Of a DNA stretch of 64,000 bases, positions 21,276-59,534 are shown piece by piece; within the stretch, counting starts at the first letter, position 1; every line of letters starts with the position of its first letter. The notes below the pieces were generated by a model. The model saw only the letters and a program-made list of their open reading frames with translations. It had not been told where the DNA came from and did no database searches. Origin of the DNA: an uncultured Methanosarcinales archaeon (GTDB lineage: Archaea; Nanobdellota; Nanobdellia; Woesearchaeales; DSVV01); the NCBI GenBank assembly GCA_964556185.1, contig CAZKVI010000001.1:7165-71164 (forward strand). Direction: 5' to 3'. The position numbers and the translations under genes were made by a program.

Positions 21276-22313
21276 ATGGGTGCAATGGGATATATGGCAA
21301 AAGCAGTACAAAGTAGGCCTTTACAGATGTTAGCTTTAGCTTCTACCTTAATTATAGCATCAGCCGCATATTCTCGGGATGCGAATGCTCTTGAAGGACC
21401 AAGTACATCATATAATACTATTCAGGTAATAAAGTATTCACCTGGTCAAGCAGTTGAAAAAGGTTCTGATTCAGTTTCTGATGATGGACTCGCAATTCAA
21501 GGAGGAGGTAGTGGTGTTGGTTCTCAATCTGGTTCTGGATCGTATGGCAGGCAAGAAAGTGCTGATAGGGCTGAGCCAGTTACTGATACTTATTTAGCTC
21601 AACATGTTTATGGAGATGATGTTGCAGAACCTTCTGAGGTTTATCTTGAAGAACTTGCACAAACAAGCACACCAGTTGATACTTATGTTCCTGATAATCA
21701 ATGTAGAACTGATGATTCTTTGGATTCTTTGCTTGCAGGTGTTAAGACAGATGAAAAAGTTGAAATGACAACTGAAGAAAAATATATATTAGGTGGTGTT
21801 GCAATTTTTGCTATTTTATTCCTTGGAGCGTTTGGAACTTTTGCTTATTTTGATTCAAGAAAAGAAGAACAAAAATCAAGAAGAAGTTCAAGACAAGATA
21901 GATATACTACTTCACCAGCACTTCGAGATGAAAAAAGAAGAAAAAGAGAAGAAGATGAAGAACCTTCTGAACCAAAAGAACCATCAATATTGGAAAGAGA
22001 TATATTTGAGATGTTATCTTCAGCATATTCAAGTTGGTTTGGTGGTAAAGAAAGTTCAACTGAAACATCTGATTCAACATCTGGTGCTTCACAACCAGAT
22101 ACAAGTACAACTTATGTTGATCCGGAACCTGAACCAGCTCCTGATTATAGGGGTTTAAAAAGAGATCGTGGAGCAAGAGGTATCTGGTCTCGTTTTGCAA
22201 CACCCACATCTGAACAACAACCTACTGCAACTGTTGATCCTGAAGTTGCTGCAAGAAGAGAAAAAGAAAGAAAAAAGAAAAAAAGAAGACGAAAAAGGAA
22301 AAAAGGTTACTAA
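21276..22313 (+). CDS. Secreted single-pass membrane protein with a Gly/Ser-rich ectodomain and a K/R/E-rich cytoplasmic tail.
   Basis: Signal-like N-terminus, TM (YILGGVAIFAILFLGAFGTFAYF), C-terminal KERKKKKRRRKRKKGY. Confidence 0.4.
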   Translation: MGAMGYMAKAVQSRPLQMLALASTLIIASAAYSRDANALEGPSTSYNTIQVIKYSPGQAVEKGSDSVSDDGLAIQGGGSGVGSQSGSGSYGRQESADRAEPVTDTYLAQHVYGDDVAEPSEVYLEELAQTSTPVDTYVPDNQCRTDDSLDSLLAGVKTDEKVEMTTEEKYILGGVAIFAILFLGAFGTFAYFDSRKEEQKSRRSSRQDRYTTSPALRDEKRRKREEDEEPSEPKEPSILERDIFEMLSSAYSSWFGGKESSTETSDSTSGASQPDTSTTYVDPEPEPAPDYRGLKRDRGARGIWSRFATPTSEQQPTATVDPEVAARREKERKKKKRRRKRKKGY

Positions 22314-28142: not shown

Positions 28143-29231
28143 ATGAAAGCAGCATTAATAAGTTTAGGAAGTGTATCTTCACAATGGACAATTGAAGCTA
28201 TGAAAAAATACTTTGATGAAGTTGATGAAATAGATCTTAGAAGTATTGAAGTTAATCTAGGTAAGAAATCAGAACCAGTATTATTTGAAGGAGAACCACT
28301 AAAAGATTATGATTGTATTTTTGCAAAAGGATCATTTAGATATTCAGGGATATTACATTCTTTAACATTATTTTTACAAGGTAAATCATATATGCCAATA
28401 AATGCAGATGCATTTACTTATGCACATAATAAGTTATTAACACATTTATTATTACAAAAAGCAGAAGTACCAATGCCAAGGACTTATTTCTCTCCTACTG
28501 TTAAAGCAGCAAGGCAAATCTTAGAAAAAGTTAATTATCCAATTATTATGAAGTTTCCTCAAGGAACTCAAGGTAAAGGAGTAATGTTTGCAGATTCTTT
28601 TGCATCTGCATCTTCTGTTTTAGATGCCTTAGAAACATTAAAGCAACCATTTCTAGTTCAAGAATATGTTGAAACAGAAGGAACAGACATAAGGGCAATT
28701 GTTGTCGGAGATAAAGTTGTTGCAGCAATGGAAAGACAAGCCGTTAAGGGTGAAGCAAGAGCTAATATTCACGCTGGTGGTAAAGGAAAAGCAATTACAC
28801 TAGATAATTTTACAAAAAAGATTGCAGTGCAAGCATCAAGAGCAGTTGGTGCTGACATTTGCGGAGTTGATATTCTCGAAGGACCAAAAGGTCCTGTTGT
28901 TATTGAAGTTAATATTTCTCCTGGCTTACAAGGTATAACAGGCGTAACAAAGATTGATGTTGCTGACCATATTGCAAGATTTTTGTTTGCAAAAGCTCAA
29001 GATATGAAAACATCACAAGTAAAACCAACAGCTGATGAAATATTAAAAGAAGTTCTTGAACAAGATAAACCAAAAGAACAAAAAGATGAATTTATTTCAC
29101 AATTAGATTTCAGAGGAGAAAGAATATTGTTACCAGAGGTTGTTACAAAGCATGGTGGTTTTTCAGAAGATGATGAATACACAGTACATATTGAAAAAGG
29201 TAAATTAAGTATTAAGAAATTCATATTGTGA
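28143..29231 (+). CDS. RimK-family ATP-grasp alpha-L-glutamate ligase.
   Basis: ATP-grasp core (EYVETEGTDIRAIVVGDKVVAAMERQA, GVDILEGPKGPVVIEVNISPG). Confidence 0.7.
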   Translation: MKAALISLGSVSSQWTIEAMKKYFDEVDEIDLRSIEVNLGKKSEPVLFEGEPLKDYDCIFAKGSFRYSGILHSLTLFLQGKSYMPINADAFTYAHNKLLTHLLLQKAEVPMPRTYFSPTVKAARQILEKVNYPIIMKFPQGTQGKGVMFADSFASASSVLDALETLKQPFLVQEYVETEGTDIRAIVVGDKVVAAMERQAVKGEARANIHAGGKGKAITLDNFTKKIAVQASRAVGADICGVDILEGPKGPVVIEVNISPGLQGITGVTKIDVADHIARFLFAKAQDMKTSQVKPTADEILKEVLEQDKPKEQKDEFISQLDFRGERILLPEVVTKHGGFSEDDEYTVHIEKGKLSIKKFIL

Positions 29232-30708: not shown

Positions 30709-31089
30709 ATGACAGAGAAAAAGCGAGTACTTGTGGTTGATGATGAGCCACACATTGTGAAACTAGTGAAACTTAGTTTAGGAAACCAAAATTATGACAT
30801 TGTTGGTATAACTTCAGGTAAAGAAGCAATTTCATATGTAAATGATAATGCTCCTGATATTTTGGTATTAGATCTTATGATGCCAGGAGTTAATGGCTAT
30901 GAGGTTTGCCAAGCTGTACGTGAAAATCCTAAAACAAAAGGCATACCAATTATAATCTTATCAGCTAAGAGTCAAATGCTTGATAAATTAAATGCAATTG
31001 ATGTTGGAGCAGATGATTATATGTGTAAACCATTTGATCCAGATGAATTAGCTAGAAGAATCAAACTTAATTTAAGTATGGTTACATGA
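30709..31089 (+). CDS. CheY-like response regulator receiver protein (stand-alone).
   Basis: VLVVDDEPHIV, DLMMPGVNGYEV, ILSAKSQ, KPFDPDEL. Confidence 0.8.
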   Translation: MTEKKRVLVVDDEPHIVKLVKLSLGNQNYDIVGITSGKEAISYVNDNAPDILVLDLMMPGVNGYEVCQAVRENPKTKGIPIIILSAKSQMLDKLNAIDVGADDYMCKPFDPDELARRIKLNLSMVT

Positions 31090-32117: not shown

Positions 32118-33896
32118 TTAAGGGCCACCAGGTGCTGTAAGTGCTATATCATATCCAGTAACAGTGCTTATATCACCCATAATTTCTGTCATAAGTGGAT
32201 CTAAAGCACATTCACCACCAACTCTATAAGTTGTACCACCACAAGTAGCTGTTACATAATGTTCAAATGGTGCACCAGGACAAGTTCCACTTAAATCACT
32301 AGCTAGTCCAGAGAATCCATTATCTTCTAATGATTGTTCAAGTGTTTGTAATTGTGTTGCATCTAATGTTCCATTACCTGGAGGAAGTCCAGTCATATTT
32401 ATTGAGTAAGCTCCACTAGCATCAATTGAAATTTCAAGTGATCTTCCGCCTGCTGTTAATGTATATCCCATTGGTGCAGTACATGGGCCTGTTGGTCCAC
32501 TTGCTGTTGGTGTAACAGTACTTCCAGGAACACCTGTAGTTGTTGTGCCAGTAGCACCTGCAGCAGTTGTTGGTGTGTATACTGTTGGAGCATCTCCTCC
32601 AATTAAATATTCTACACCTTCTTGGAATACTTCAGGATTTGGATTTCTAGGAATACCTTCAACTTCAATATCAAATTCATATATACAATCAGGAGCTGTT
32701 GCTTCAGCTGCTTCTAAAGGATTAATAACTACATGTACATTATTATCAGGAGAATGTGAATAAACCCATTGAACATTAAATCTTCTTTGATTAGCAGCTC
32801 CAGGTCCGCATTTGAATACATATCTTGCACTTACTTCTAAGTTTCCATCATCATTCCAATATTTGTTAGTTATTCTTCGAACTCCTGCTGCGTCAGCACC
32901 ATCAGGATTACCTATTACTCTATAATTTCCTTGATCTCCTCTAGTTATTCTTGGTAAGCTTGCTCCAGAACTTTCTGTTGGTAAATAAACAACCCTTAAA
33001 TCTTTTCTTTCTTCTGGAATTATACCAGCTAGTTCTATTCTTCTAGCTAAGTCTGCATCTTCTTCAGCTGTTCTTGCAGCTCTTAATGCAATTCTTGCTT
33101 CTGTTATTTCAGTTCTTTCTTCTTCATATGCTTCTGTTGTAGCATCAATAATTCCTTGAACAGCAATTAAATCTTGAGCATAATGAGTTAATGTTTCTTG
33201 AGCAGCTACCTTAGCATTTTCTATTCCATCTTCATAAAAATCAATATCAACCCATTGTCCACCAACATAAATTAATTTATTTCTCTCTCCTGAAACTGGT
33301 ACAGGACTTTGTTCATATCCAGCAACTAGGCTAGGATTTTTTGTTAATGTAATTGTTGTTGCTTCAAAATTACCTATTGTTACAACATCATATCTTTTTT
33401 TGTGTTCTATTCTAGATTTTCTAGCATGTCCATTTAATTCATTTGCTAAATGCCCAAATCCATCTACATTAGTATAAACATCAATTGCAATTCTTTTTTC
33501 AGTTGGTGTTTCACAATCAGTTGCTTCAGTAGTTACTGGATTGCATTCATCTGTACCAGCCACATCAGTAGTAAGTACATATTCACTAGAAGCAAAAACA
33601 TAAGCAGTGTGTGTATTTCTATCAAAGAATCTGTATTCTGTTCCATTTAAAGAATTAATTTTTCGAACATCGTAATTACTTAAACTATCAACAATTGCTT
33701 CTCTTATATTATCATGAGAATTTCTGTATATTCCTTCTAACATATCACCAAGTTCTCCTTGGTTTGGTATTTCAAATTCAGGTGTTGCAGTTGCAGTAGT
33801 TGCTTGAGCTTTTGCACCAGTATTTACAGGAAGTAATGTACTTGCTCCTAGTAATAATAATGCTGCTGCTTTTGCTAAAAAACCTTTAACTCTCAT
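32118..33896 (-). CDS. Secreted protein with a signal peptide and a Thr/Gly/Pro-rich C-terminal region.
   Basis: MRVKGFLAKAAALLLLGASTLLPVNTGAKA signal peptide. Its GC content is higher than its neighbours. Confidence 0.5.
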   Translation of the reverse strand: MRVKGFLAKAAALLLLGASTLLPVNTGAKAQATTATATPEFEIPNQGELGDMLEGIYRNSHDNIREAIVDSLSNYDVRKINSLNGTEYRFFDRNTHTAYVFASSEYVLTTDVAGTDECNPVTTEATDCETPTEKRIAIDVYTNVDGFGHLANELNGHARKSRIEHKKRYDVVTIGNFEATTITLTKNPSLVAGYEQSPVPVSGERNKLIYVGGQWVDIDFYEDGIENAKVAAQETLTHYAQDLIAVQGIIDATTEAYEEERTEITEARIALRAARTAEEDADLARRIELAGIIPEERKDLRVVYLPTESSGASLPRITRGDQGNYRVIGNPDGADAAGVRRITNKYWNDDGNLEVSARYVFKCGPGAANQRRFNVQWVYSHSPDNNVHVVINPLEAAEATAPDCIYEFDIEVEGIPRNPNPEVFQEGVEYLIGGDAPTVYTPTTAAGATGTTTTGVPGSTVTPTASGPTGPCTAPMGYTLTAGGRSLEISIDASGAYSINMTGLPPGNGTLDATQLQTLEQSLEDNGFSGLASDLSGTCPGAPFEHYVTATCGGTTYRVGGECALDPLMTEIMGDISTVTGYDIALTAPGGP

Positions 33897-34039: not shown

Positions 34040-35536
34040 ATGGGAGTAAGCATTCGAACAAAGATAATTATGGTTGTGTTGTTTTTAGTACTTTCTTCTA
34101 CAATGATTGTTGGGTTTTATGTTGCACATTTGAAACTACAAGAAATACTAACTCCTACTCTTACAGGGATTTTATTGCAAAAAGAGACATTGTTGATTAT
34201 AGCAATTACATTTATTATGGCGTTTATTATTGCGATAGCATTTTCTTATACAATTACTAAACCTATTGATGATCTGATTTTAGGTACACAATTGGTTTCA
34301 GCTGGTAAATTAGATAGAGAGATTGATAAATTTACAGATGATGAGATTGGGAGATTAGTGGACGCTTTTAATGAGATGAATGTTAATTTAATGCATACAA
34401 CAGAGCAAAAAACAAAGTTTTCAGAAGAAGCTATATTAGAGAAAAATAAAGCAGAACTTATAATCCAGAGCATGGGTGATGGGGTTATTGTGACTGATAA
34501 AGATCAAAAAATTGTTTTGTTTAATCAAGGTGCAGAGAATATCTTTGAAATTGAAGCAAAAAAAGTTTTAGGAAATCATCTTCTTCATTATAAAAGACTT
34601 TTTGGTTTAGAAAAGAATATCTTGGATAGAATTTATAACCCAGATTTTATAAAGAAAAAACAGTCTTTGTCGACGGAAATAGAATTATTGCAACCAACAC
34701 ATACTGTGCTTAAAGTTGATATTGCACCTCTAAAAAATGAGAAGGGTAATGTTCTTGGAACAGTTTTGGTTTGGCATGATATTACACAACAAAAAGAAAT
34801 TGAAAATATGAAAACAGAATTCGTTTCTATGGTAAGTCATGAATTAAGAACACCATTGACAAGTATTAAAGGTTATGCTGCTTTATTACAGGATCCTAAG
34901 CTTGGATTATTGACAGAAAAACAAAATCGAGCTATTTTAATTATTAACAAAGAGTCAGATAGATTAACTTATTTGATTAATGATATTTTGGATTTAAGTA
35001 AATTAGAAGCAGGAAAAATTAAGTTAAATATAGAACCAGTGAACCTCGAAGAATGTATAGATAATGCTGCATCTTTAGAAGATGTTAAAAAGAAAAATAT
35101 CTCTTTTAGAAAGAGAATTCCAAAAAATATGCCTTTAGTCCCTGCAGATAAAGGAAAAATAACACAAGTATTTACAAATCTAATTAGTAATGCAGCTAAG
35201 TTTACTAAACCAAAAGGAAAGATTATGGTTATGTTATCTAATAGAGAAAAAGATGATTTTGTCGTCGTAAAAGTTAAAGATACTGGTATTGGTATTGCAA
35301 AAAAACATATTCCAAATCTTTTCAATAAATTTTATCAAGTTGAGTCACATTTAAGGAGAAATGTTGGCGGAACAGGATTAGGGTTACCAATTGTAAAAGA
35401 GATTGTAACACTTCATAAAGGAGAAATCTCTGTTAAAAGTAAAATAAAACAAGGTACATCTATAATTTTTAAATTACCTAAATTAAAGGAGAAAAAAGAT
35501 GAAGAAGAAAAAGATAAAAAACAAAAAACAAAGTAA
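34040..35536 (+). CDS. Membrane sensor histidine kinase (TM-HAMP-PAS-HisKA-HATPase).
   Basis: Two TM helices, HELRTPLTSIKGYA H-box and N/G1/G2 boxes (NLISNAAKFT, DTGIGI, GGTGLGL). Confidence 0.85.
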   Translation: MGVSIRTKIIMVVLFLVLSSTMIVGFYVAHLKLQEILTPTLTGILLQKETLLIIAITFIMAFIIAIAFSYTITKPIDDLILGTQLVSAGKLDREIDKFTDDEIGRLVDAFNEMNVNLMHTTEQKTKFSEEAILEKNKAELIIQSMGDGVIVTDKDQKIVLFNQGAENIFEIEAKKVLGNHLLHYKRLFGLEKNILDRIYNPDFIKKKQSLSTEIELLQPTHTVLKVDIAPLKNEKGNVLGTVLVWHDITQQKEIENMKTEFVSMVSHELRTPLTSIKGYAALLQDPKLGLLTEKQNRAILIINKESDRLTYLINDILDLSKLEAGKIKLNIEPVNLEECIDNAASLEDVKKKNISFRKRIPKNMPLVPADKGKITQVFTNLISNAAKFTKPKGKIMVMLSNREKDDFVVVKVKDTGIGIAKKHIPNLFNKFYQVESHLRRNVGGTGLGLPIVKEIVTLHKGEISVKSKIKQGTSIIFKLPKLKEKKDEEEKDKKQKTK

Positions 35537-37199
35537 AGAATCTGGAAAAAAAAGAAAATTACTAACACACTCAGAGCTTGCAAAGCATGAGGGTTATAAG
35601 TATTTATTCGATTGTGCAGTAGATGGCTTTTTTGTTTCAACTAGAAATGGAATTTATATTGATGCAAATAAAAAAAGTTGTAGAATGTTAGGAAGACCTC
35701 TAAATTGGATTATAGGAAAGCATTTTACAGAATTAATGGCAGAAGAGGTAAGAAAAGAAGCTAGAAAAGGCCATAGGGAACTTTGTAAAAAAGGAAAAAC
35801 AAGGGGAGAAAGAATCTTTTTGAGAAAAGATGGCTCGCTTCTTTATGTTGATTTAAAAGCTAGACAGTTTAATGTTGGAAATAGGCGTTATTATATCTCA
35901 ATGATAAGAGATATTAGTAAAAGAAAGAAATATGAATGGGAATTAGAAGAGAGGAATAAAAGTCTTAATACTTTATTGGAAATTGATAATATTCTTGGTT
36001 CAACTCAAGAGACAGATAAGGCTTTAAAATTAATTTTAGATAAAACTGTTAAGTTTACAGAGTCAGATGCTGGATCACTTGTATTAGTTGAAGAAGGAAA
36101 TCTTGTTATTAAATATATGAAAGGTTATAAAAGAGAAGATATAACTCCTGGAGTAACTTTTAGAAAAGGTATTGTAAAAACAGCAGTTGAAAATAAAGAA
36201 TCGCTTTATGTTCCTGATACAAAAAAAGATAAAAGGGTTGTGAAGTTAGTAATTCCAGCTAGATCAGAAGTAGCAATTCCATTAAAAGTAAAAGGAAAAG
36301 TTATTGGTGTATTAGATTTAGAGAGTAAAAAAGTAGATAATTATTCTAAATTTAAACCTTATCTTAATTTATTAACAAAACATATTTCAATGGTTATTGA
36401 GAATTCTAGATTAGTAGATGAGGTTAGTGATTTTAATGAAAGATTACAGGATGAAGTTTATCAAGCAACTAAGGAATTAAGGATTAAAAATTTAGAATTA
36501 CAAAGATTAGATCAATTAAAATCAGACTTTGTTAGTAGTGTTAGTCATGAATTAAGAACTCCTTTAACAAGTGTAGCAGGTTATGCAAAAGTTCTTTATA
36601 GAGGAAAACAAGGAGAACTAACAGAAGATCAAAAAGATTCATTAAATATAATTATTGAAGAAGCTGAAAGATTAACTAGGTTGATTAATGATGTTTTAGA
36701 CTTGAGTAAGTTAGAGACAGGTAGAATTCGTTTTAAATTAGAAAAAGTTAATTTGGTTGAGAGATTAAAACAATGTGTTGATGTTGTTAAAGCATCTGCA
36801 GAAGAGAGTGGAATAAAACTGACTCTTAAAACTTCAAAAAGTCTTCCACTTATTAATGGAAATAATGATCTTCTTGGTCAAGTTTTCATGAATCTTTTAA
36901 GTAATGCCTTGAAATTTACTGATAAAGGTGGTTTTATTTCTATAATTGTTAGAAAAAAAGAGGATTATCTTCGTACAATTGTTAAAGATAGTGGGTGCGG
37001 AATTCCAGATGAAATGCTTCCAAAATTATTTAACAAATTTTACCAAGCAGATATGTCTATGTCAAGAAAACACGGTGGTACTGGTCTAGGATTGCCTATT
37101 GTTAAACATATTATACAAATTCATAAAGGAAATATTACAGTAGAATCAGAAGTTGGAAAAGGAAGTAGTTTTATTATTGATATTCCAATAAATAGATAG
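35499..37199 (+). CDS. Cytoplasmic sensor histidine kinase (PAS-GAF-HisKA-HATPase). The start is uncertain.
   Basis: HELRTPLTSVAGYA H-box, GAF-like middle region, GGTGLGLPIV G2 box. The 5' end overlaps the upstream kinase gene inside a poly-A/Lys-codon tract. Confidence 0.8.
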   Translation: MKKKKIKNKKQSKESGKKRKLLTHSELAKHEGYKYLFDCAVDGFFVSTRNGIYIDANKKSCRMLGRPLNWIIGKHFTELMAEEVRKEARKGHRELCKKGKTRGERIFLRKDGSLLYVDLKARQFNVGNRRYYISMIRDISKRKKYEWELEERNKSLNTLLEIDNILGSTQETDKALKLILDKTVKFTESDAGSLVLVEEGNLVIKYMKGYKREDITPGVTFRKGIVKTAVENKESLYVPDTKKDKRVVKLVIPARSEVAIPLKVKGKVIGVLDLESKKVDNYSKFKPYLNLLTKHISMVIENSRLVDEVSDFNERLQDEVYQATKELRIKNLELQRLDQLKSDFVSSVSHELRTPLTSVAGYAKVLYRGKQGELTEDQKDSLNIIIEEAERLTRLINDVLDLSKLETGRIRFKLEKVNLVERLKQCVDVVKASAEESGIKLTLKTSKSLPLINGNNDLLGQVFMNLLSNALKFTDKGGFISIIVRKKEDYLRTIVKDSGCGIPDEMLPKLFNKFYQADMSMSRKHGGTGLGLPIVKHIIQIHKGNITVESEVGKGSSFIIDIPINR

Positions 37200-37583: not shown

Positions 37584-38273
37584 TTAAGCTACTTTTCTGA
37601 GTACACGAGGAGCCCATGATCCAGGTTCAAGATCTTTAGCAGCCCTGGTTTTTTCTTCATCAAGAACAAGTTCATCGGGAAGACCATATTTTCCAAGCAT
37701 GCTCCAGCAAGTATAAATTCTTCCACTAATAGGTAAGTTTGAAGCTATGCTAGCTAATGCTTCTAAAACCAATCTTCTACTTTGTTTCCTGTGCCTTAAA
37801 GTCCATCCACTTACTTTTGCATTTGAGGCATAAATTTTAGTAACACTTTCAATAGTTGCTCCAAGAGCAAAGATATCGTCACCTGAAGCAAATTCTAATC
37901 TATCTAATTTACTTCTAATTTGTTCAAGGCGGCCTTCTTCACAGAAATATCTTCTTCTTAATCTAGTACGGTCTTCTAAAATTGCATCAGAAAGACGGAA
38001 AGTTGAACAACCTCTTGAATGATAAGGAGCTATTGATAAAAATGTTTCATAGTCTCCTCTACTTAGTGCTTCTACTCTTTCACGAACATATGCAATTTGA
38101 TGGGGATTTTTATCACAAACAATTACTCTTCCTGCATTCTCTAGCATTGCAAGAGCTTGGTCACCTCCACTTGTCACAGTTAATATGGTGTCTGAAGTAG
38201 AAGGTTCTAATCCTGCCATGATTGCGTTAACATTTTCATTTGTTGCAAAATATTCTAATCCAGGTCTGCTCAT
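37584..38273 (-). CDS. Hypothetical Rossmann-like protein (possible SAM-binding / DUF3419-like). The gene is GC-elevated.
   Basis: ILTVTSGGDQALAMLENAGRVIVCDKNP resembles a nucleotide-binding beta1-loop-alpha1 followed by an acidic beta2 end. GC is about 42% against a ~31% background. Confidence 0.3.
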   Translation of the reverse strand: MSRPGLEYFATNENVNAIMAGLEPSTSDTILTVTSGGDQALAMLENAGRVIVCDKNPHQIAYVRERVEALSRGDYETFLSIAPYHSRGCSTFRLSDAILEDRTRLRRRYFCEEGRLEQIRSKLDRLEFASGDDIFALGATIESVTKIYASNAKVSGWTLRHRKQSRRLVLEALASIASNLPISGRIYTCWSMLGKYGLPDELVLDEEKTRAAKDLEPGSWAPRVLRKVA

Positions 38274-38312: not shown

Positions 38313-38981
38313 TTATTCTAACCCAATAACATCATCAATATTGACAACTGGTTTGTTGAATTTCTCGTATTCGTCGATTGCTATTCTTGGGCAGGCAGTG
38401 TTTACCCAGACTTCTACAAATGGGAAGTTTTCTAATTGACTAAAATCTACATTATCACATAAGAAAAAGTAACAAGTTTTGCCTTTTGCTTCAATCTTTT
38501 GTTTTAGTTTTTCTGCGTCTTTTAGTCTATTCTGACCAGGTTTTGTAGTAATTATAACACCAATTTCATCTGCTGTTAAGAATTTTAATATTGCTCCTTT
38601 GATCTTTTTCTTTGTTTTCTCAATGTCTTTCTCGTCGATAATTACTAATGTTTCAGTTCTTGGATCATATGCAAAAACTGGTTTCTCATTTTGCATCATT
38701 AAAGCTTGTGGATGAAATAAACCATCTCCAACATAAAGAAAAGCAGGAACATCGCATTTTATTGTTTCGCAGCCTAATATTTGGCCACTATATTTTGTAT
38801 GTTTTCCATCAATAATATGCACTTTAATGCCAGCTTTTTCTAATTGGGCTTTTATTGCTTCAAAAGAATTTATATATTGGACTGTTGTGAATAATGCTAG
38901 TTCTTTAGGAAGGGCTTTTATAACTTCTTTAGATAGTAAAAATGTCTTATTTGCTCTTGCTTCTAACCATAGGGTTTTCAT
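38313..38981 (-). CDS. dph2: Dph2-family diphthamide-synthesis protein (2-(3-amino-3-carboxypropyl)histidine synthase), short form lacking the first domain.
   Basis: GQILGCE, LYVGDGLFHP and FPFVEVWVNTACPRIAIDEY align with Dph2 domains 2 and 3 (GQVLGCN / LFIGSGIFHP / VVVACPRVPLDDY in Pyrococcus Dph2). There is no room upstream for domain 1. Confidence 0.7.
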   Translation of the reverse strand: MKTLWLEARANKTFLLSKEVIKALPKELALFTTVQYINSFEAIKAQLEKAGIKVHIIDGKHTKYSGQILGCETIKCDVPAFLYVGDGLFHPQALMMQNEKPVFAYDPRTETLVIIDEKDIEKTKKKIKGAILKFLTADEIGVIITTKPGQNRLKDAEKLKQKIEAKGKTCYFFLCDNVDFSQLENFPFVEVWVNTACPRIAIDEYEKFNKPVVNIDDVIGLE

Positions 38982-41952: not shown

Positions 41953-42055
41953 ATGTTCTTATGAGTATATGTATTTTAAATACTTTGTTAAAAATTAGAT
42001 TATTTTAGTATAATAAACACAAATAATTTAAAACCAAGTCGTGATAAATTAAGCT

Positions 42056-44083
42056 ATGCCAGAAATAGGAGAACCTCCAAAGCCAAAAAGAGTATCAGCT
42101 GATAAGTTCTTAGAGCAAGAAGAAGAAAGACATTATGTACATTCTCCTGGGGAAGCTCAACAATCAGAAGGAGAAGAACCTCAATTAGAAAAAGTACTTA
42201 GTTATCCTGTTATTTTACTTATTACTATAAATTCCATCATGGGTACTGGAATATTCTTTTTGCCTGCTGTTGGAGCAAGTTTAGCAGGTCCAGCTTCATT
42301 AATAGCATGGGCTGTTATGGCAATAATTGCTATTTATATTTCAATGATTTTTGCAGAATTAACATCTATGTTTCCAGAAGCAGGTGGAATTTATGAGTTT
42401 TGTAAGCAAGCTTATGGTTATTTTTGGAGTTTCTTAATAGGATGGGGAACTTTAATAGCTGGAAATATAACAATAGCGATGTTAGTTGTTGGTGCTATAC
42501 AATATTTAGTTCCTGTAGAAGCACCTTTGGTTACAATACCAATTGCATTATTCTTTTTGTTTATGTTTAATTATATTGCATATAAAGGTATGAAAACTTC
42601 AGCAGTTATGTTGGTTGCTTTTGCAATAATAACATTTTGTGCAATACTTGGTTTAGCAATTCCTGGTGCACTTTCATTTCATCCAGAAAATTTTACTCCA
42701 TTTTTTATCGGGCCAATGTCATTGATAATAATAACTATTTTTAGTATTTCTGAAACATTCTTTGGTTGGGAAACTGCTACATTCTTAGCAGCAGAAACAA
42801 AAGATGGAGCAAGAGTAATGCCAAAAGCATTGATTTGGGGAACAGTAATAATTGCAGTGATTGTTCTTTTTTCTGTTTTTACTAGTCTAAATGCAATTAA
42901 TTGGGAAGTATTTGGAGGTTCTTCTGCTCCATTATCTGATTTAGCAGCTGTGCATTATGGTGATCTTGGTGTAAAAATATTTACAATTATTGTTTATTTA
43001 GCTATTATTGGGTCAGTTGCTGGTTGGATTGTTTCAGCACCTAGATTAATATTAGCAATGGCTCAAGATAAATTATTTTTAAGTCAATTATCTAAAATTC
43101 ATCCTGTCTATAAAACTCCTTACAAAGCAATTATTTTTCAAACAATTGTTACGTCGATTTTAGTTATAATTGGAGGTGGAGCATATAAAACTCTATTACA
43201 TTTACTTGTTCCATTAGTTTTAATTCTTTATAGTGCAGTAATTCTTAGTTTATTGTTTTTAAGAAAGAAATTACCAGACCATACTCGTCATTTTACAACA
43301 CCTTTTGCATGGCCTGGGTGTATTATTGTAATCTTGTTTTTATTGTTCTTAATAGTTATGTGGTTAATAACAACAGCGCATGCAGTACCAATTTTCTTAT
43401 TGGCATTATCTTTGTTGTTTTTTGGAATACCAATCTATATTTTGTTAAAGGTTTATTATGATCCAGATGCTGCAGTTAGTTTAAATAATTATATTGCACC
43501 ATTGTCATTTTTATTTGATAGGTTCTTTATTTTAAAGTCTGTGAAGCAAGAAATATTTGATCTTATCGACGAGGAAATTGAAGGCAAAAGAGTTCTTGAA
43601 TATGGCTCATCTGTTGGTACATTAACTAAAGAAATTGCTTCTAGGGCAGGAAGTGATGGAGAAGTTTATGCAACAGAAATCTCAGCTAATGCAATTAAAA
43701 TAGCAAAATGGAGATTAAAAAGATTAAATTTAGAGAATGTTGAGTTTTTCCATGATCCTCATCAAGTTAATCAAGTACATCAAGGAGTTCCAAGAGTGCA
43801 TGCAATTGTTTCAATGGGCATGTTTGGTTATATGCAAGATATTGAGAAGGTTTTGAGAGAGATGCATGAAAGACTTCCTGATGGCGGAAAGATTTGTTTT
43901 TGTGATTATGTTGATTTCTTTCATATGCTTCCAAATGCAGGTTGGTTAGCAAACGAAGATATGATTAAGGATATATTTGATAAAGTTGGCTTCAGAGTAA
44001 TTATTAGAAAGAAAAAGTCTTTGTTCTGGAATTATTTATTTATCTATGGAATTAAGTCTGAGGATGAAGTTCCGTTTGCATAG
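42056..44083 (+). CDS. Fusion protein: an APC-family amino acid permease joined to a C-terminal class I SAM-dependent methyltransferase domain.
   Basis: About 12 TM helices with APC signature (ITINSIMGTGIFFLP). After about aa 480 come VLEYGSSVGTLT (motif I) and DGEVYATEIS. Confidence 0.6.
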   Translation: MPEIGEPPKPKRVSADKFLEQEEERHYVHSPGEAQQSEGEEPQLEKVLSYPVILLITINSIMGTGIFFLPAVGASLAGPASLIAWAVMAIIAIYISMIFAELTSMFPEAGGIYEFCKQAYGYFWSFLIGWGTLIAGNITIAMLVVGAIQYLVPVEAPLVTIPIALFFLFMFNYIAYKGMKTSAVMLVAFAIITFCAILGLAIPGALSFHPENFTPFFIGPMSLIIITIFSISETFFGWETATFLAAETKDGARVMPKALIWGTVIIAVIVLFSVFTSLNAINWEVFGGSSAPLSDLAAVHYGDLGVKIFTIIVYLAIIGSVAGWIVSAPRLILAMAQDKLFLSQLSKIHPVYKTPYKAIIFQTIVTSILVIIGGGAYKTLLHLLVPLVLILYSAVILSLLFLRKKLPDHTRHFTTPFAWPGCIIVILFLLFLIVMWLITTAHAVPIFLLALSLLFFGIPIYILLKVYYDPDAAVSLNNYIAPLSFLFDRFFILKSVKQEIFDLIDEEIEGKRVLEYGSSVGTLTKEIASRAGSDGEVYATEISANAIKIAKWRLKRLNLENVEFFHDPHQVNQVHQGVPRVHAIVSMGMFGYMQDIEKVLREMHERLPDGGKICFCDYVDFFHMLPNAGWLANEDMIKDIFDKVGFRVIIRKKKSLFWNYLFIYGIKSEDEVPFA

Positions 44084-44085
44084 GT

Positions 44086-45057
44086 TTAATCAGTCTGTTG
44101 CTGTCTAAGGTCATACAATGCACCGAGAGCAACTTTACCAGCAGTCATTAAGTTTTCTTCATGATTATCATCCCAGATTCCTTCTCTTCTATTATTAACA
44201 GCAGGACAAATACATCCAACATTATATCCTTGGTCTGCCATAAGATAAATTAGAATGGATGCCTCCATTTCCATATTCTCAAATCTTAATCCATCAATTT
44301 CTGGGTTTAACTCTGCAAACATTCTATCTAAATCTGGAACAGTGGGACGAGTTCTAAAAATATCTCTGCCTTGGGCTGCCCAAAATCCAGGACAAGAAAC
44401 AGTTATTCCTTTTTTATAATCAACATCATATTTTCCTGCAGCTCTTTCTAATGCATCAACAACACTTTGTGTTGCTTTTGCACTATATGGGTGGAATTTT
44501 CCTTCATGTCTTTCTCCACTTGGTGTTGCATCGTTAATAGCATTTTCTACTAATCTTTCAAGTTGTGGACAACAATCATCTGAGATTGCTGCACTATAAT
44601 ATAATCCAGCAGCATCCAAACCTACAACATATTTAGTAATAAGAGCTGATCCAAGTTGGGTTTCTTCTCTTAGTCCTCCAGATGTTCCTAGTCTTATTAT
44701 ATTAATTTGATCCCACGTTTCTTTTCTTTTCTTAGTTTCCCAAATTAATTCATTTAAAATAATAAGTTCTCCAAATATAATATCTGCAGAAGGAGTGCCC
44801 ATACCATGTGTAACAAAAGATACATATTGGCCAGTGTCTTTTGTTTTTCCTGTTACGGTTCTTAAGCCTCTATGTTCATGTGTAAAATAATCTGGTTCTA
44901 AATATTCATCAGCAAGGGTGGTAGTTCTATCAGGATCACCGACAACTATAATATCAGGAGCAATATCTCCAGGTTTTACATCTAAATGATACACTTTTCC
45001 CCCATCTGGTGAAGTTGGTAAGTCTGCTGGAGGAAAAGGTCCTGGATTCTTTACCAT
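44086..45057 (-). CDS. PNP/UDP-family nucleoside phosphorylase (uridine or purine nucleoside phosphorylase-like).
   Basis: HLDVKPGDIAPDIIVVGDPDR, THGMGTPS and RLGTSGGL motifs. The gene is GC-elevated. Confidence 0.55.
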   Translation of the reverse strand: MVKNPGPFPPADLPTSPDGGKVYHLDVKPGDIAPDIIVVGDPDRTTTLADEYLEPDYFTHEHRGLRTVTGKTKDTGQYVSFVTHGMGTPSADIIFGELIILNELIWETKKRKETWDQINIIRLGTSGGLREETQLGSALITKYVVGLDAAGLYYSAAISDDCCPQLERLVENAINDATPSGERHEGKFHPYSAKATQSVVDALERAAGKYDVDYKKGITVSCPGFWAAQGRDIFRTRPTVPDLDRMFAELNPEIDGLRFENMEMEASILIYLMADQGYNVGCICPAVNNRREGIWDDNHEENLMTAGKVALGALYDLRQQQTD

Positions 45058-45058
45058 T

Positions 45059-46660
45059 TTAGCCTCTTGTTGGTCTTGGTGTGTGTCTGTAACCCATTAC
45101 GCATGGAGATATAAACTCAAACAAATATTCTTTACTGCCTGCTTTTTTGTTTGTGCCAGATTTACCATCGCCGCCGAATGGTTGTCTTGCTACGTCTGCT
45201 GCAGTTGTTTTTCTATTAACATATAAATTTCCAGCATTGTTAATAAAAATAGGCAAGTATTTTTCTAATTTTGTTGGATTTTTTATGTAAGCACTGCCTG
45301 TTAATTTGTATCCATTTTCATCAAGTGCTTTTAATGTGTCTGCTTCATCCTCGTCGTCAAAACCATAAATTGCAATTACTGGACCAAAGATTTCTTCTTG
45401 CATTAATTTATGTCTTTTGTCTGTAACTGCAATAACTGTTGGTTTTATGTAATAACCAGAAGATTTGTCAAATGTTCCTCCTGAAATAATTGTGCAATTA
45501 GGATCTTGTTTTGCTTCTTCAATGTATGAAGTAATTTTATTAAATGCTTTTTCATTTATTACAGGACCCATATTAACTTTATTAGTTGTAGGATCTCCTG
45601 TTGTAAAATTATCAAGTCTTTGTTTTAATAATTCTAATAATGTTGGTAATAAACTTTTGTGAACATAAGCTCTGCTGTTTGCAGAACATTTTTGTCCAGA
45701 TCTTCCATAAGCTCCTGCAACAATTTGGTCTGCAACATCATCTAACCAAGGTTCTGCAGATACATCAACCCACATAAAATCTTTTCCACCTGTTTCTGCA
45801 ATTACTCGAGGGAAATGTAATCTTTTTCCAGAGCCTTCGACAATTTGTTTAATTGCCCAAGCTGTATCATAACTTCCTGTAAAATTTACTGCACTTAATT
45901 CTGGATGTTTTAATACAACATTTCCAAATTCTATCCCTGGACAAGGTATCATATTAATAACACCATCTGGGAATCCAGCGTCTTTTAAACATTGCATGAA
46001 TAAATATGAAACTAAGATTGCATCACTGCTTGGTTTCCAAACAACAACATTTCCTGTCATAGCCATTACAACAGGTAAATTATAACCAATTGCAATTGGG
46101 AAATTAAATGGAGTTATTGCAGTTGTAAATCCTTTTAATGGTCTATGTACAATTGAATTTGTTTCATCAGGACTATCTTTTAATTGTTGTTGTAAAAGTT
46201 CATGATAGAAAAATGGATTAAATCGCATAAAATCAATCATTTCTGCATAACCACCTTCTGCTTCAATAGCATTGTAACCGCATTCTAACATACCAGCTGC
46301 AATAATATCTTCGTGTCTTTGTAATAAGATCTTTTCTAAATCTTTCATTAATAGAATTCTTGTTTCTGGTTTTAATGCAGCCCAATCTTTTTTAGCTTTT
46401 AATGCAGCATCAACTGCAGCTTTCATTTCAATCTCACTACCTTTGTGGCCTATTGCTACAGTGCTTAAATTTGAAGGATTTATTGAGTTAAAAGTGTTAT
46501 TTGTTTTGATTTCTTTTCCATTGATGATTATTGGAACTTCAATAGGACCTTTTTCTTGGTATTGTCTAATTTTGTTGATTAAAGATTCCCATTTTGCATT
46601 GTCACCATAATAATTTTCAAAAGCTTGATTTTCTGGTTGTTTTATAGAAAGTATTGTCAT
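45059..46660 (-). CDS. Aldehyde dehydrogenase superfamily protein, probably 1-pyrroline-5-carboxylate dehydrogenase.
   Basis: ALDH Rossmann/catalytic motifs. IAETGGKDF matches the P5CDH-type GETGGKNF, and a Cys nucleophile (GQKCSANSRAYV) is present. Length is 533 aa. Confidence 0.65.
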   Translation of the reverse strand: MTILSIKQPENQAFENYYGDNAKWESLINKIRQYQEKGPIEVPIIINGKEIKTNNTFNSINPSNLSTVAIGHKGSEIEMKAAVDAALKAKKDWAALKPETRILLMKDLEKILLQRHEDIIAAGMLECGYNAIEAEGGYAEMIDFMRFNPFFYHELLQQQLKDSPDETNSIVHRPLKGFTTAITPFNFPIAIGYNLPVVMAMTGNVVVWKPSSDAILVSYLFMQCLKDAGFPDGVINMIPCPGIEFGNVVLKHPELSAVNFTGSYDTAWAIKQIVEGSGKRLHFPRVIAETGGKDFMWVDVSAEPWLDDVADQIVAGAYGRSGQKCSANSRAYVHKSLLPTLLELLKQRLDNFTTGDPTTNKVNMGPVINEKAFNKITSYIEEAKQDPNCTIISGGTFDKSSGYYIKPTVIAVTDKRHKLMQEEIFGPVIAIYGFDDEDEADTLKALDENGYKLTGSAYIKNPTKLEKYLPIFINNAGNLYVNRKTTAADVARQPFGGDGKSGTNKKAGSKEYLFEFISPCVMGYRHTPRPTRG

Positions 46661-46738: not shown

Positions 46739-47623
46739 TTATTCTAGGAGGCTTTTTAAATAGTCTCCTTTGAATTTGAAGCCTTTTTTCTTAGCAATCT
46801 TTGCAAGAATTCTGTCAAACTTACTTCCGTATTGTGCTGCTTTCTTTTTTCGCCAGGCGAATTCATCTGGAAGACCTTCTTCTTCTGCGATTTCTCTTAA
46901 GATTATTTTTTTTTGATCTTCATCAAGTTTATCTTTATCTGGCCAGAGCATTGCTTCAATAATTAATTCTTTATCTAAAAAAGGAGTCATTAATTCTACA
47001 TTGAAAAACTTGGCTAGGGTGTAATCTCTTACAAAATCTCTTTCCCACATATTTTTTAAGCCAGACCAACATTCTTCTGTTACATTTTCTGCAAGACCAT
47101 GTCTATCATAGCCTGCAAAGATTTCTTCAGAACCAAGTCCACTAAATAGAACATTGATGTTATCTTCTTTAGCAAGTTCAGCTGCAGCATAAACAACGCA
47201 ACCAACTCCAACTTTTACAACATTTGAATTATTGAGTGTTTTTACAGTTAGTTTTATGACTTTTTCTAATTCTTCTTCTGTTAATATTTTGTATTTTAAC
47301 TCTAGGCCAATTTCATCAGCGAGCTTTCTAGCGTATTCAACATCAGGAGAACCTTCAACACCAACTGAATAACAAATAAAATCACATTTTAGTTTTTTAG
47401 CAACTAATGCAATAAATGAACTATCAACACCACCTGATAAAAGAATTCCGAATTTGCCTTTGCAACGTGTTTTGATTGCATTAAGTAATGTTTGTCTTAG
47501 TTTTTCTTTATCTGGATCATCTGTAATTGTTTCTATTTCAGTTTTTAGATTATTGATGTATTCTTTCCAAGCTTTTTCTTCAATCAATTTTCCATTTATT
47601 ATGATGTTGGATTTTTCAGTCAT
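46739..47623 (-). CDS. PP-loop ATP pyrophosphatase, asparagine-synthetase-domain-like (no glutaminase domain).
   Basis: ILLSGGVDSSFIA is the SGGxDS PP-loop. Confidence 0.6.
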   Translation of the reverse strand: MTEKSNIIINGKLIEEKAWKEYINNLKTEIETITDDPDKEKLRQTLLNAIKTRCKGKFGILLSGGVDSSFIALVAKKLKCDFICYSVGVEGSPDVEYARKLADEIGLELKYKILTEEELEKVIKLTVKTLNNSNVVKVGVGCVVYAAAELAKEDNINVLFSGLGSEEIFAGYDRHGLAENVTEECWSGLKNMWERDFVRDYTLAKFFNVELMTPFLDKELIIEAMLWPDKDKLDEDQKKIILREIAEEEGLPDEFAWRKKKAAQYGSKFDRILAKIAKKKGFKFKGDYLKSLLE

Positions 47624-47710: not shown

Positions 47711-48169
47711 TTGAGGGGAATGAAAAAACGTATTTTAATAGCGGATGATGAATATACAATCAGAGAACTAATAGAAATGACACTAGAGTCTGATTATGAG
47801 GTAATTAAGGCAGAAGATGGTCTAGAAGCCCTTAAAATGGCTCAATCTAAGCCTGATTTGATAATTCTTGATATTATGATGCCAAAATTAGATGGTTTTG
47901 AAGTGTGTAAGAGATTGAAATCAGATAGAGAAACTAGAGAAATTCCAATTATTATGCTTACAGCAAAGCATCAAATGGAGGATGTTAATAATGCAACATC
48001 TTGTGGTGTTGATGAATATATTACAAAACCATTTGAACCAGAGTTCTTAAAAAAGAGAATTGATGTAAATTTTAAACAAGTTGATGAGAATTTACCAGCT
48101 GAAAAGAAATTGTTTAGATATGGTAAAAGTTTGCATTACATTAAAGGCAGACAAAACGTTCCTAATTAG
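47711..48169 (+). CDS. CheY-like response regulator receiver protein (stand-alone).
   Basis: ILIADDEYTIRELI, DLIILDIMMPKLDGFEV, MLTAKHQ, TKPFEPEFL. Confidence 0.8.
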   Translation: MRGMKKRILIADDEYTIRELIEMTLESDYEVIKAEDGLEALKMAQSKPDLIILDIMMPKLDGFEVCKRLKSDRETREIPIIMLTAKHQMEDVNNATSCGVDEYITKPFEPEFLKKRIDVNFKQVDENLPAEKKLFRYGKSLHYIKGRQNVPN

Positions 48170-58256: not shown

Positions 58257-59534
58257 GTGATTTATATGGTTTCTAATTTAAAATTAAAAAAATCTGATTG
58301 GCAAAAGATTATTTTAGGAATTAGAAAAAAGTTAAATTTGAGTCAAACTAAATTAGCACGAAAGCTTTGTCTAAGTAGACAAACTATTAGCAGATTTGAA
58401 TCTAAACAAAGAATTCCAAATCATAGTTATCAAAAAAAGATCTTGGATCTTATTAGTAATGAAGATTTAGATATTTGTGAGTTAATAAATGAAGGTACAA
58501 AGTATTCCAAAGAGTACATTAAAAGACAGAAAAACGAGAAACTAGATCTAAAAAGATCAGTTGAATTAGCAGAATTAATAGGAATTATTCTTGGTGATGG
58601 TGAAATAATAAGGGATGGTACAATGAGAATCTCTTTTGATCCTAAAAAAGATAAAAATTTCCTTAATAGAAGAGTTATTTTTCTTATAAAACAATTATTA
58701 AACAAGAAAATTACTTATGAAAGCAATAAAAGAATTGCTTTTGGAAATATTGCTTTTGTAAGGTATTTAGAACAAGATTGTGGTTTAAAACCAGGAAGTA
58801 AGTTTGAAAATAATTCACAAATACCTAAGTGGTGTTTTGAAAAACAAGAGTATATTTCAGCTGTTTTAAGAGGATTATTTGATACTGATGGTTATTTTGG
58901 GTATTATGATTTCACTACAGAAATAATGTATGGAAGATTTTCAGATAAATGTACTAATTTAGTTCAAGATATAATAAAAAGCCTTAAGATACTGGGGTTG
59001 AATTCCAGTGTAAAACATACTAAAGATGGAAGATTTAAAATCAGAATATGTAAAAGAACAGATGTTTTGACTTTTTTTGAGAAAATTGGAACCTCAAATA
59101 TAAAACACATTGTTCGGTTCTTATTATGGAGATTTAATAGGTATGAAGCCAAGATTGAATTAGAAGGATTAGCAAACTTAATATTGAAAACAAGGTCCCT
59201 TTACCCAAATATAGAAGCTATACAACTGCCTTTCTTCTGGAATTTGGATAATATATGCTTCAAATCTTATGTACTAGAAGATTTGAATGAAATAGAAGGA
59301 GCACAAATTAAAAATATTTATAAATGGGACATAGTTTCTCGAGACTTAATTAAATATATGGGTAACAATAAGTTAGCAAATATATTTAATATAAATAACA
59401 GAAGTGTTAGAAAATGGCGTGAAGGGAGAAGAATTCCTTCTGACATAAATGCTTCGAAATTGATCAAATTATTAAAAGAGCATAATTTGACTCCAAGTGA
59501 TTATATAATGAAAAATGGCAAAGGAAACAATTGA
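58257..59534 (+). CDS. LAGLIDADG homing-endonuclease-like protein flanked by N- and C-terminal HTH domains.
   Basis: Two LAGLIDADG motifs ~97 aa apart (LIGIILGDGEI and LRGLFDTDGYF). N-terminal XRE-type HTH (LNLSQTKLARKLCLSRQTISRFE) and a C-terminal HTH-like segment (NRSVRKWREGRRIPS). Confidence 0.7.
   Translation: MIYMVSNLKLKKSDWQKIILGIRKKLNLSQTKLARKLCLSRQTISRFESKQRIPNHSYQKKILDLISNEDLDICELINEGTKYSKEYIKRQKNEKLDLKRSVELAELIGIILGDGEIIRDGTMRISFDPKKDKNFLNRRVIFLIKQLLNKKITYESNKRIAFGNIAFVRYLEQDCGLKPGSKFENNSQIPKWCFEKQEYISAVLRGLFDTDGYFGYYDFTTEIMYGRFSDKCTNLVQDIIKSLKILGLNSSVKHTKDGRFKIRICKRTDVLTFFEKIGTSNIKHIVRFLLWRFNRYEAKIELEGLANLILKTRSLYPNIEAIQLPFFWNLDNICFKSYVLEDLNEIEGAQIKNIYKWDIVSRDLIKYMGNNKLANIFNINNRSVRKWREGRRIPSDINASKLIKLLKEHNLTPSDYIMKNGKGNN

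Follow-up and report, generated by a model that had tools for sequence, protein, structure and literature searches.

A DPANN protein family in which an APC-type permease is joined to a class I SAM-dependent methyltransferase

The 64,000-nucleotide stretch of archaeal DNA analysed here (from contig CAZKVI010000001.1; referred to below as the window) carries at 42056..44083 a gene whose product of 675 amino acids (aa) is made up of three parts: a complete APC/SLC7-like permease with 12 transmembrane helices (TM1 to TM12), a conserved helical linker, and a class I methyltransferase (MTase) dependent on S-adenosylmethionine (SAM). Judged by its sequence, the fusion protein belongs to both the APC superfamily and the class I SAM-MTase superfamily. 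In the databases searched, the fusion is rare globally, but standard across one lineage of DPANN archaea (Woesearchaeota/Nanoarchaeota). We tentatively propose, with less than even confidence, that it couples transport to methylation, with an active cytoplasmic MTase acting on a small solute that probably bears an amine.

The original prediction, made from the letters of the DNA, had described a single 675-aa open reading frame (ORF) encoding an APC permease of ~470 aa and a C-terminal class I MTase with the motif I VLEYGSSVGT, and had seen no frameshift at the junction. ORF and Pfam agree with this description, the permease measuring about 420-470 aa. The frame on the plus strand is unbroken, starts with ATG and has no internal stop; 'VLEYGSSVGT' is found at aa 513-522 of the translation, the matches to AA_permease_2 and Methyltransf_11/25 are all above the gathering scores, and an identical NCBI protein (P0001) turned up in a search of 5.8 billion proteins. 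Both domains are present in each of the 120 best database matches, which are 53-100 % identical to the fusion protein and 582-694 aa long (all but one 610-694 aa). Linker ('YYDP...') and both domains align in 45/45 homologues of 53-80 % identity, the full-length fusion is found in 80/80 of the best genome loci, and the join is kept even in distant members, down to 22-27 % identity. That homologues always occur as two separate genes, which would have spoken against the original prediction, is clearly not what is observed. One could suppose that an overlooked stop, a frameshift or a chimeric assembly has fused two neighbouring genes, but this explanation is effectively refuted: the ORF is continuous, the join and the linker are conserved across homologues, GC and skew run smoothly through the junction, and a chimeric assembly is very unlikely given that genomes assembled independently show the same join.

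Residues are numbered here as in the fusion protein, and those called invariant or at least 90 % conserved were so classified in the alignment of the 45 homologues. Column conservation, i.e. the frequency of the commonest residue per alignment column, is on average 0.74 in the permease, 0.54 in the linker, 0.61 in the MTase and 0.08 in the N-terminal tail. The AlphaFold2 (AF2) model of the full-length protein has a pLDDT (predicted local distance difference test score) of 84.9 and a pTM (predicted TM-score) of 0.77, and at this pTM the model may place the two domains relative to each other with some confidence.

The permease matches Pfam AA_permease_2 (PF13520) at aa 53-445 with an E-value of 5.6e-43 (147.9 bits against a cutoff of 27), and PF00324 as well (E 3.1e-26). 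The phmmer alignment with BasC (6f2g; E 2.6e-28, 24 % identity) spans residues 8-432 of the 444 residues of BasC, and Foldseek gave target-normalised TM-scores of 0.82-0.85 to BasC, GkApcT, LAT1 and AdiC at 20-24 % identity. In APC carriers the unwound G-[ST/A]-G segment of TM1 and the aromatic-G-aromatic segment of TM6 bind the alpha-carboxylate and alpha-amino groups of the substrate. Both segments are recognisable in the fusion protein (Table 1), with E233, T234, F235, F236, G237, W238 and E239 invariant in TM6 of the 45 homologues. A lysine of TM5, corresponding to K154 of BasC, is pivotal in L-type amino acid transporters (LATs; PMC11736713). V187 stands opposite K154 in the phmmer alignment, in which individual residues cannot be paired reliably given the 24 % identity, and a nearly invariant lysine, K180, sits seven residues upstream of V187. 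The fusion did not reach the cutoff of any curated NCBIfam equivalog: the best score was obtained with TIGR00909 (168 bits against 556.8), followed by BcaP (115 against 690), AdiC (99.8 against 574) and the ethanolamine permease (69 against 382 bits).

The charged tail in front of the permease is missing from most homologues, which start at the equivalent of aa ~43; the extension is specific to a small subclade and is also present in P0002 (80 % identity). At the other end of the permease, BasC terminates (just after 'GIPIYF...') where the linker of the fusion begins, and the fusion runs on with 'YYDP' and three short helices (aa 457-504). The AF2 model has helices at 457-468, 470-486, 488-491 and 494-504 in this region. 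A conserved linker, which the original prediction had suggested looking for, does exist: it could be aligned in all 45 homologues, Y467 and E488 being at least 90 % conserved.

Several Pfam models of class I MTases match at aa ~503-632, all of them above their cutoffs: Methyltransf_31 (E 4.8e-12, 46.2 bits), _23 (2.7e-11, 43.9 bits), _12 (1.2e-10, 42.5 bits), _25 (2.6e-10, 41.3 bits) and _11 (1.7e-6, 29.0 bits). In the AF2 model the domain has the class I (Rossmann-like) fold, a seven-stranded sheet with alternating helices, with strands at 512-516, 536-541, 562-566, 583-587, 612-619, 646-654 and 659-667. Motif I, the glycine-rich loop (E/D-x-G-x-G-x-G), is recognisable, and in addition to its invariant residues L514, E515, V520 and T522 are conserved to at least 90 %. 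The middle glycine of this motif is S519 in the fusion protein and either G or S across the family, in which 'GCSVG' is common; serine at this position is thus, to judge from the alignment, a tolerated variant and no loss. An acidic residue, which in class I MTases binds the ribose hydroxyls, stands at the end of beta2 ('YATE541' here, 'YATD' in most members) and is lost only in the pseudo-MTase paralogues described below, and 'HD' is conserved after beta3. Three further conserved spots lie outside the SAM motifs. After beta4, S586 is invariant, and G588 and Y592 are at least 90 % conserved. The loop after beta5 follows the pattern 'DYxxFFxxIPNxxWL', which survives in members of only 30-40 % identity; residues 622-627 of this loop have a pLDDT below 50 in the full-length model. 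In the beta6-beta7 hairpin ('FWNY') W658 is invariant and Y660 at least 90 % conserved. Because in the standard class I topology all three spots are on the ligand-binding edge, they probably form an aromatic-rich acceptor pocket. Both termini of 12-TM APC carriers are cytoplasmic, as established for BasC, AdiC and ApcT, and since the core of the fusion is a complete carrier of this kind, the MTase domain is predicted by homology to lie in the cytoplasm, where it has access to SAM.

The nearest folds and sequences are those of small-molecule MTases, many of which are amine N-methyltransferases: phosphoethanolamine N-methyltransferase (PMT), PmtA and GSMT/SDMT; UbiG, DhpI and TmtA are further neighbours. 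With a family profile the best sequence matches were plant PMTs (E 3e-12), 3dh0 (9e-11) and ArsM (6e-9). The catalytic dyad of PfPMT is Tyr19/His132 (PMC6705855). In the profile alignment with AtPMT, 'SRDTILHIQD' of PMT stands opposite 'vsvgmlgyiqd', so that the catalytic His of PMT corresponds to Tyr592 and Asp128 to Gly588; PMT is the nearest characterised relative, and the fused domain resembles it in shape, but the fusion is not a member of that family. Identity with ArsM, which has conserved As(III)-binding cysteines, was also rejected, the matches being weak (29-32 bits against cutoffs of 263-575) and none of the columns of the family that are invariant or nearly so being a cysteine.

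With the TM6 motif as the pattern and each species represented by a single genome, relatives were detected in at least 253 species-level genomes. At the 80 best loci the match to the query runs from aa ~43 to ~670, three loci ending early at a contig end, and all 80 come from metagenome-assembled genomes (MAGs) of Woesearchaeota, Nanoarchaeota or Nanobdellota, i.e. of DPANN archaea. Some of these loci are labelled 'uncultured Methanosarcinales', which looks like a placeholder label. The named sources among the 120 best matches are MAGs of Candidatus Woesearchaeota, Nanoarchaeota or DPANN. The architecture had been predicted to be rare; this holds in that it is confined, as far as searched, to one archaeal group, but within that group it is lineage-wide.

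When aa 469-675 alone were compared with 1.84 billion cluster representatives, 248 matches were found at E<=1e-3, 113 (50 % identity clusters) at E<=1e-10 and 47 at E<=1e-30. Nearly all strong matches were fused proteins of 600-860 aa, aligned at approximately residues 430-650, and the rest were short fragments, some of which start exactly at the 'YYDP' linker. Ordinary stand-alone MTases first turn up near E 1e-6. The MTase domain is, by this measure, a closed clade found almost only in fused form, which suggests that its function depends on attachment to the carrier; the fusion seems to be the setting in which, and for which, the domain evolved. The window also encodes a class I MTase that stands alone (16801..17577); it was considered as a relative of the fused domain and found to be unrelated (E 5.2). 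There is no paralogue of the fusion within the 64-kb window.

In some genomes there are two or three tandem paralogues (~626, 707 and 777 aa), all of the same architecture. An alignment of 86 diverse fused proteins revealed three states. In the main clade, which comprises the fusion protein and most homologues, both the transporter-site motifs and the SAM motifs are intact. In the second state, subgroup A (P0165, P0186, P0200, P0238, P0246 and others), the transporter-site motifs are lost and the SAM motifs are intact; the membrane domain is only 15-22 % identical and matches AA_permease weakly or not at all, and P0165 is homologous to the canonical fusions over 96 % of its length. The third state, intact transporter motifs with degenerate SAM motifs, is found in the ~777-aa tandem paralogues and in P0219, P0244, P0172 and P0212. 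The ~777-aa paralogues adjoin a canonical ~626-aa fusion (L078:11919-14252, L062:3846-6176, L057:6094-8427, L028:5928-8255), and are extended at the N-terminus; with an intact permease and a degenerate SAM site ('MVYNSPMG', 'IIANQ') they appear to be pseudo-methyltransferases. The third paralogue, of ~707 aa, has 'GSSLFY' in TM1 and 'HHHP' after beta3; it is complete in L078, L062 and L057 and cut at the locus end in L028. Four proteins of 827-858 aa (P0138, P0158, P0164, P0180) contain an extra region of ~200 aa C-terminal to the MTase, for which no Pfam match was found save a weak one to DUF3108 in P0138. The residues of the acceptor face barely differ between paralogues with different transporter motifs (GTG/FFGWE versus GSS/FFGFE).

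The original prediction had suggested coupled uptake and methylation of a substrate, such as an amino acid or polyamine, or a transceptor-like arrangement; both are hypotheses. According to the mechanism that we propose, the solute moved through the membrane by the 12-TM APC/SLC7-type carrier would be an alpha-amino acid or a related amine, the short conserved helical cap would tie the cytoplasmic C-terminus to TM12, and a compact MTase of the small-molecule type, presumably catalytically active, would sit beside the cytoplasmic mouth of the carrier. Whether just released or awaiting export, the solute would receive the methyl group at a moiety that all substrates of the paralogues share, most likely an amino group. 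Methylation would commit or trap the solute, or make an exchange partner, so that one polypeptide would act as a 'transport metabolon'. The analysis shows the architecture, its conservation, the intact motifs of both sites and the fold, whereas we only infer that the MTase is catalytic, what it methylates, which way the solute moves and that the two domains are physically linked by channelling. Both modules look functional in the main clade, where the TM1 and TM6 motifs are invariant and the SAM motifs conserved. We favour coupling because the modules are intact, the acceptor face is conserved, the neighbours of the domain are small-molecule MTases, the clade is closed and fused, and because of subgroup A: an intact MTase in the absence of amino-acid-site motifs is hard to explain for a mere regulator of amino-acid transport. 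It must be noted that the evidence (conserved SAM motifs, conserved acceptor face, an almost exclusively fused MTase clade) fits the hypothesis of coupling but does not amount to a demonstration of it.

Several points weigh against this proposal. No acceptor can be named, and the fold neighbours are generic, with 15-20 % identity. Gly588 at the position of Asp128 of PMT means that the chemistry is not that of PMT. The paralogues which keep the domain in spite of degenerate SAM motifs imply that a non-catalytic role exists or is possible. The constancy of the acceptor face across paralogues suggests that side chains do not determine the acceptor, which may even be something other than the transported solute, and the gene neighbourhoods, surveyed in 85 loci, contain no metabolic partner. 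The weakest point is physiological: N-methylated nutritional amino acids are useless for translation, and their production costs SAM in an energy-poor organism, which leaves the logic of trapping unclear.

The pseudo-MTase paralogues, which retain the domain beside an intact permease, speak for another explanation, namely that the domain is a SAM-sensing regulator whose occupancy by SAM or S-adenosylhomocysteine gates the carrier, catalysis not being needed; amino-acid uptake, e.g. of methionine, could in this way be trans-inhibited according to methyl-donor status. The C-terminus of APC-fold carriers is the usual site of cytoplasmic regulatory domains, and the full-length model also matches SLC12 NKCC1/NCC and c-di-AMP-bound KimA, which have such domains. 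The lack of stand-alone orthologues of the domain among the 1.84 billion cluster representatives would agree with a regulatory role as well, and the family-specific conserved residues could form an interface with the carrier instead of an acceptor pocket. SAMTOR is a precedent for a class I MTase fold that serves purely to sense SAM (PMC10883374). We nevertheless consider a sensor rather unlikely, since subgroup A keeps canonical SAM motifs despite the loss of the amino-acid-site motifs, since conservation covers the entire acceptor side in addition to the SAM site, with a Tyr at a catalytic position of PMT, and since nothing points to methionine as the substrate.

Subgroup A, with its intact MTase on a divergent membrane domain that AA_permease recognises weakly or not at all, can also be understood in a different way. 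The MTase could be tethered to the membrane and act on a target other than the solute, such as the head group of a lipid, a protein of the membrane or envelope, or cytoplasmic residues of the carrier (CheR-like adaptation), while the permease would be mainly a membrane anchor or would work independently. That the acceptor-face residues are unchanged across paralogues with different transporter-site motifs is consistent with such a target, and membrane-associated lipid and quinone MTases are among the structural neighbours (PmtA 8ys9, UbiG 4kdr, cyclopropane-fatty-acid-synthase-like proteins). On the other hand, the permease is the most conserved part of the main-clade proteins (0.74 against 0.61 for the MTase) and its substrate-site motifs are invariant, which is not what a mere anchor would look like; DPANN archaea are generally thought to have no lipid synthesis of their own, and no recurrent partner gene was found nearby in the 85 loci. 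On balance we find a tethered enzyme with a separate target unlikely.

A more specific form of coupling, SAM-driven group translocation or 'vectorial methylation', seems to us distinctly improbable. In this case methyl transfer at the mouth of a reversible SLC7-type exchanger would make uptake or export unidirectional. If true, energy-poor DPANN archaea that depend on hosts would have invented a chemically novel means of energising or rectifying transport and diversified it by tandem duplication.

Table 1. Coordinates in the window of the fusion gene, its parts and its upstream region
Feature	Residues (aa)	Position	Strand	Basis
Upstream intergenic region, 103 bp, very AT-rich		41953..42055	.	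GC 0.24 in 300-nt sliding window 41750-42049
Permease-methyltransferase fusion gene, including stop codon		42056..44083	+	Continuous ORF, both Pfam domains, identical NCBI protein P0001
N-terminal tail, charged, predicted disordered	1-42	42056..42181	+	pLDDT <50 at residues 1-40; mean conservation 0.08
APC/SLC7-like permease core, 12 TM helices	43-465	42182..43450	+	Pfam, BasC alignment, Foldseek, AF2 helices
TM1 substrate-site motif 'NSIMGTGIFFL'	59-69	42230..42262	+	G63, T64, G65 invariant; aligns with BasC 'GAGIFF'
TM6 substrate-site motif 'SETFFGWET'	232-240	42749..42775	+	E233-E239 invariant; aligns with BasC 'YDGW'
Conserved helical linker/cap, from TM12 end ('YYDP') to beta1	466-509	43451..43582	+	AF2 helices, conserved Y467/E488
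Class I SAM-dependent MTase domain, predicted cytoplasmic	510-675	43583..44080	+	Pfam, AF2 fold
Motif I SAM-binding loop 'LEYGSSVGTLT'	514-524	43595..43627	+	G517, G521, T524 invariant
Family-specific loop after beta5 'DYVDFFHMLPNAGWL'	617-631	43904..43948	+	P626 invariant; F622, N627, W630 >=90 %

The window consists of archaeal housekeeping DNA with a GC content of ~0.31 (thermosome, FtsZ, class I LysRS, DTD2, Spt5, L11, SHMT, GARS). The intergenic region upstream of the fusion presumably holds the promoter; no Rfam match was obtained anywhere in the 64-kb window, and a riboswitch or other regulatory RNA upstream of the gene was thus not found. In an unbiased census of 85 loci the most frequent neighbours were S7 (31), Dph2-like (30), RpoA' (19), RpoA'' (18), L7Ae (17), the C-terminal part of RpoB (16), NusA (15), eIF1A (14), S12 (13) and the N-terminal part of RpoB (12). 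In many lineages the fusion adjoins the conserved rpo-nusA-S12-S7 core block. The other recurrent neighbours (RimK-like ATP-grasp and Zn protease, peptidase S49, RDD, RpoB, NAD(P)HX dehydratase) give no metabolic clue; the window contains no SAM-cycle genes, and no SAM-cycle or metabolic partner recurs among the 85 loci.

In 20/79 loci the fusion has a short Dph2-like gene as its upstream neighbour, in divergent orientation, and in 18/47 such a gene lies within 6 kb; in the window it is found 3 kb upstream. A link to diphthamide synthesis was considered and rejected: the Dph2-like gene is no commoner than S7 (30 versus 31 of 85) and ~60 % of the loci are without it, so that the association is best read as inherited core-genome synteny. 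The Dph2-like protein of the window (38313..38981, minus strand, 222 aa; PF01866 E 1.6e-50) aligns to residues 93-304 of the 327-aa archaeal Dph2 (6bxm) with an E-value of 1.6e-30, the N-terminal ~90 residues being missing. It keeps 'ILGCE' and 'NTACPR', and the short form of 213-231 aa recurs in 30/85 loci, usually next to the fusion gene and divergent from it. The missing ~90 residues presumably hold the first Fe-S cysteine ligand, by analogy with Dph2 of P. horikoshii. Directly downstream on the same strand there is a 229-aa ORF (37584..38273, minus strand) of which only the first ~80 residues match DUF3419, which we take to be the family of BtaA-type SAM 3-amino-3-carboxypropyl transferases.

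A RimK-like ATP-grasp ligase, often together with a PF05618 Zn protease, is located upstream of the fusion in 14 other loci (e.g. L011:1058-2137), and the copy in the window (28143..29231, plus strand) is 13 kb upstream. Directly downstream of the fusion there is a convergent run of three genes on the minus strand, encoding a 323-aa protein of the PNP_UDP_1 phosphorylase/nucleosidase family (44086..45057), an aldehyde dehydrogenase (45059..46660) and a 294-aa Asn_synthase-only protein without a glutaminase domain (46739..47623); none of the three recurs beside the fusion in other genomes. The window also encodes, on the plus strand, two PAS/GAF sensor histidine kinases in ORFs with a 38-nt overlap (34040..35536 and 35499..37199) and two stand-alone CheY-like response regulators (30709..31089 and 47711..48169), a two-component gene content higher than one might expect for a reduced genome of the DPANN type. 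A giant ORF of 3274 aa (4..9828, plus strand) begins 4 nt from the edge of the window, and a 425-aa ORF (58257..59534, plus strand) between the Spt5-like gene and L11 has an HTH_3 domain and a LAGLIDADG_3 domain of the homing-endonuclease-like kind. Four ORFs had no Pfam match (E<=1e-3 to 1e-4): 32118..33896 (minus, 592 aa), 60391..62520 (plus, 709 aa), 9829..10770 (minus, 313 aa) and 21276..22313 (plus, 345 aa).

Our literature searches found no paper describing a permease-methyltransferase architecture, and none of the curated families describes it or has an equivalog threshold that the fusion would reach; the databases annotate it as a plain 'amino acid permease', which hides the second domain. 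Several marks suggest that the fusion is a real functional unit and not a case of casual domain accretion: the number of genomes that encode it, its frequent position beside the RNA polymerase/ribosomal block, its tandem duplication, and an MTase that is found essentially nowhere else. With their minimal genomes, DPANN archaea are thought to depend on metabolites that they obtain from a host or from their surroundings, which makes transporters central to their biology, yet to our knowledge almost no DPANN transporter has been characterised. Coupled methylation, if true, would represent a new kind of transport metabolon, and a SAM sensor joined directly to the carrier would give prokaryotes a counterpart of SAM-dependent nutrient sensing. 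The compact fusion protein should be amenable to expression, and standard assays could tell the hypotheses apart.

It is instructive to compare the fusion with known systems. It shares the 12-TM APC fold, the G-x-G of TM1 and the aromatic-G-aromatic of TM6 with BasC, LAT1, AdiC, GkApcT and ApcT, but BasC/LAT-type carriers stop a few residues past TM12 and have no enzyme domain, whereas the fusion continues into the MTase. The small-molecule class I MTases (Aquifex 3dh0, Hvo_0019, DhpI, PMT, UbiG) are 15-20 % identical to the fused domain; they do not have its 'IPNxxWL' and 'FWNY' motifs, and are soluble or peripheral and unfused, in contrast to the carrier-attached MTase of the fusion. The E. 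coli MmuP/MmuM pair, an APC S-methylmethionine (SMM) permease and a homocysteine methyltransferase encoded in one operon, is related in concept. Uptake is also coupled to modification of the solute in AdiC/AdiA precursor-product antiport and in group translocation by the phosphotransferase system (PTS); SulP-carbonic anhydrase fusions would be another transporter-enzyme couple. These systems have in common with the permease-methyltransferase fusion the concept of a functional or physical coupling of uptake to chemical modification of the solute. MmuM is, however, a Zn-dependent TIM barrel (Pfam S-methyl_trans) which is unfused and uses SMM, and none of these systems has a class I SAM methyltransferase fused to its carrier. 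A C-terminal cytoplasmic domain on an APC-fold carrier, as in the fusion, is known from KimA, where it binds c-di-AMP, and from the SLC12 proteins. The domains of KimA and SLC12, the C2 domain of MetNI and SAMTOR have no sequence relationship to the fusion, SAMTOR being a functional analogy only, and unlike these regulatory-domain systems the fusion conserves the residues of the presumed acceptor face as well as the SAM site.

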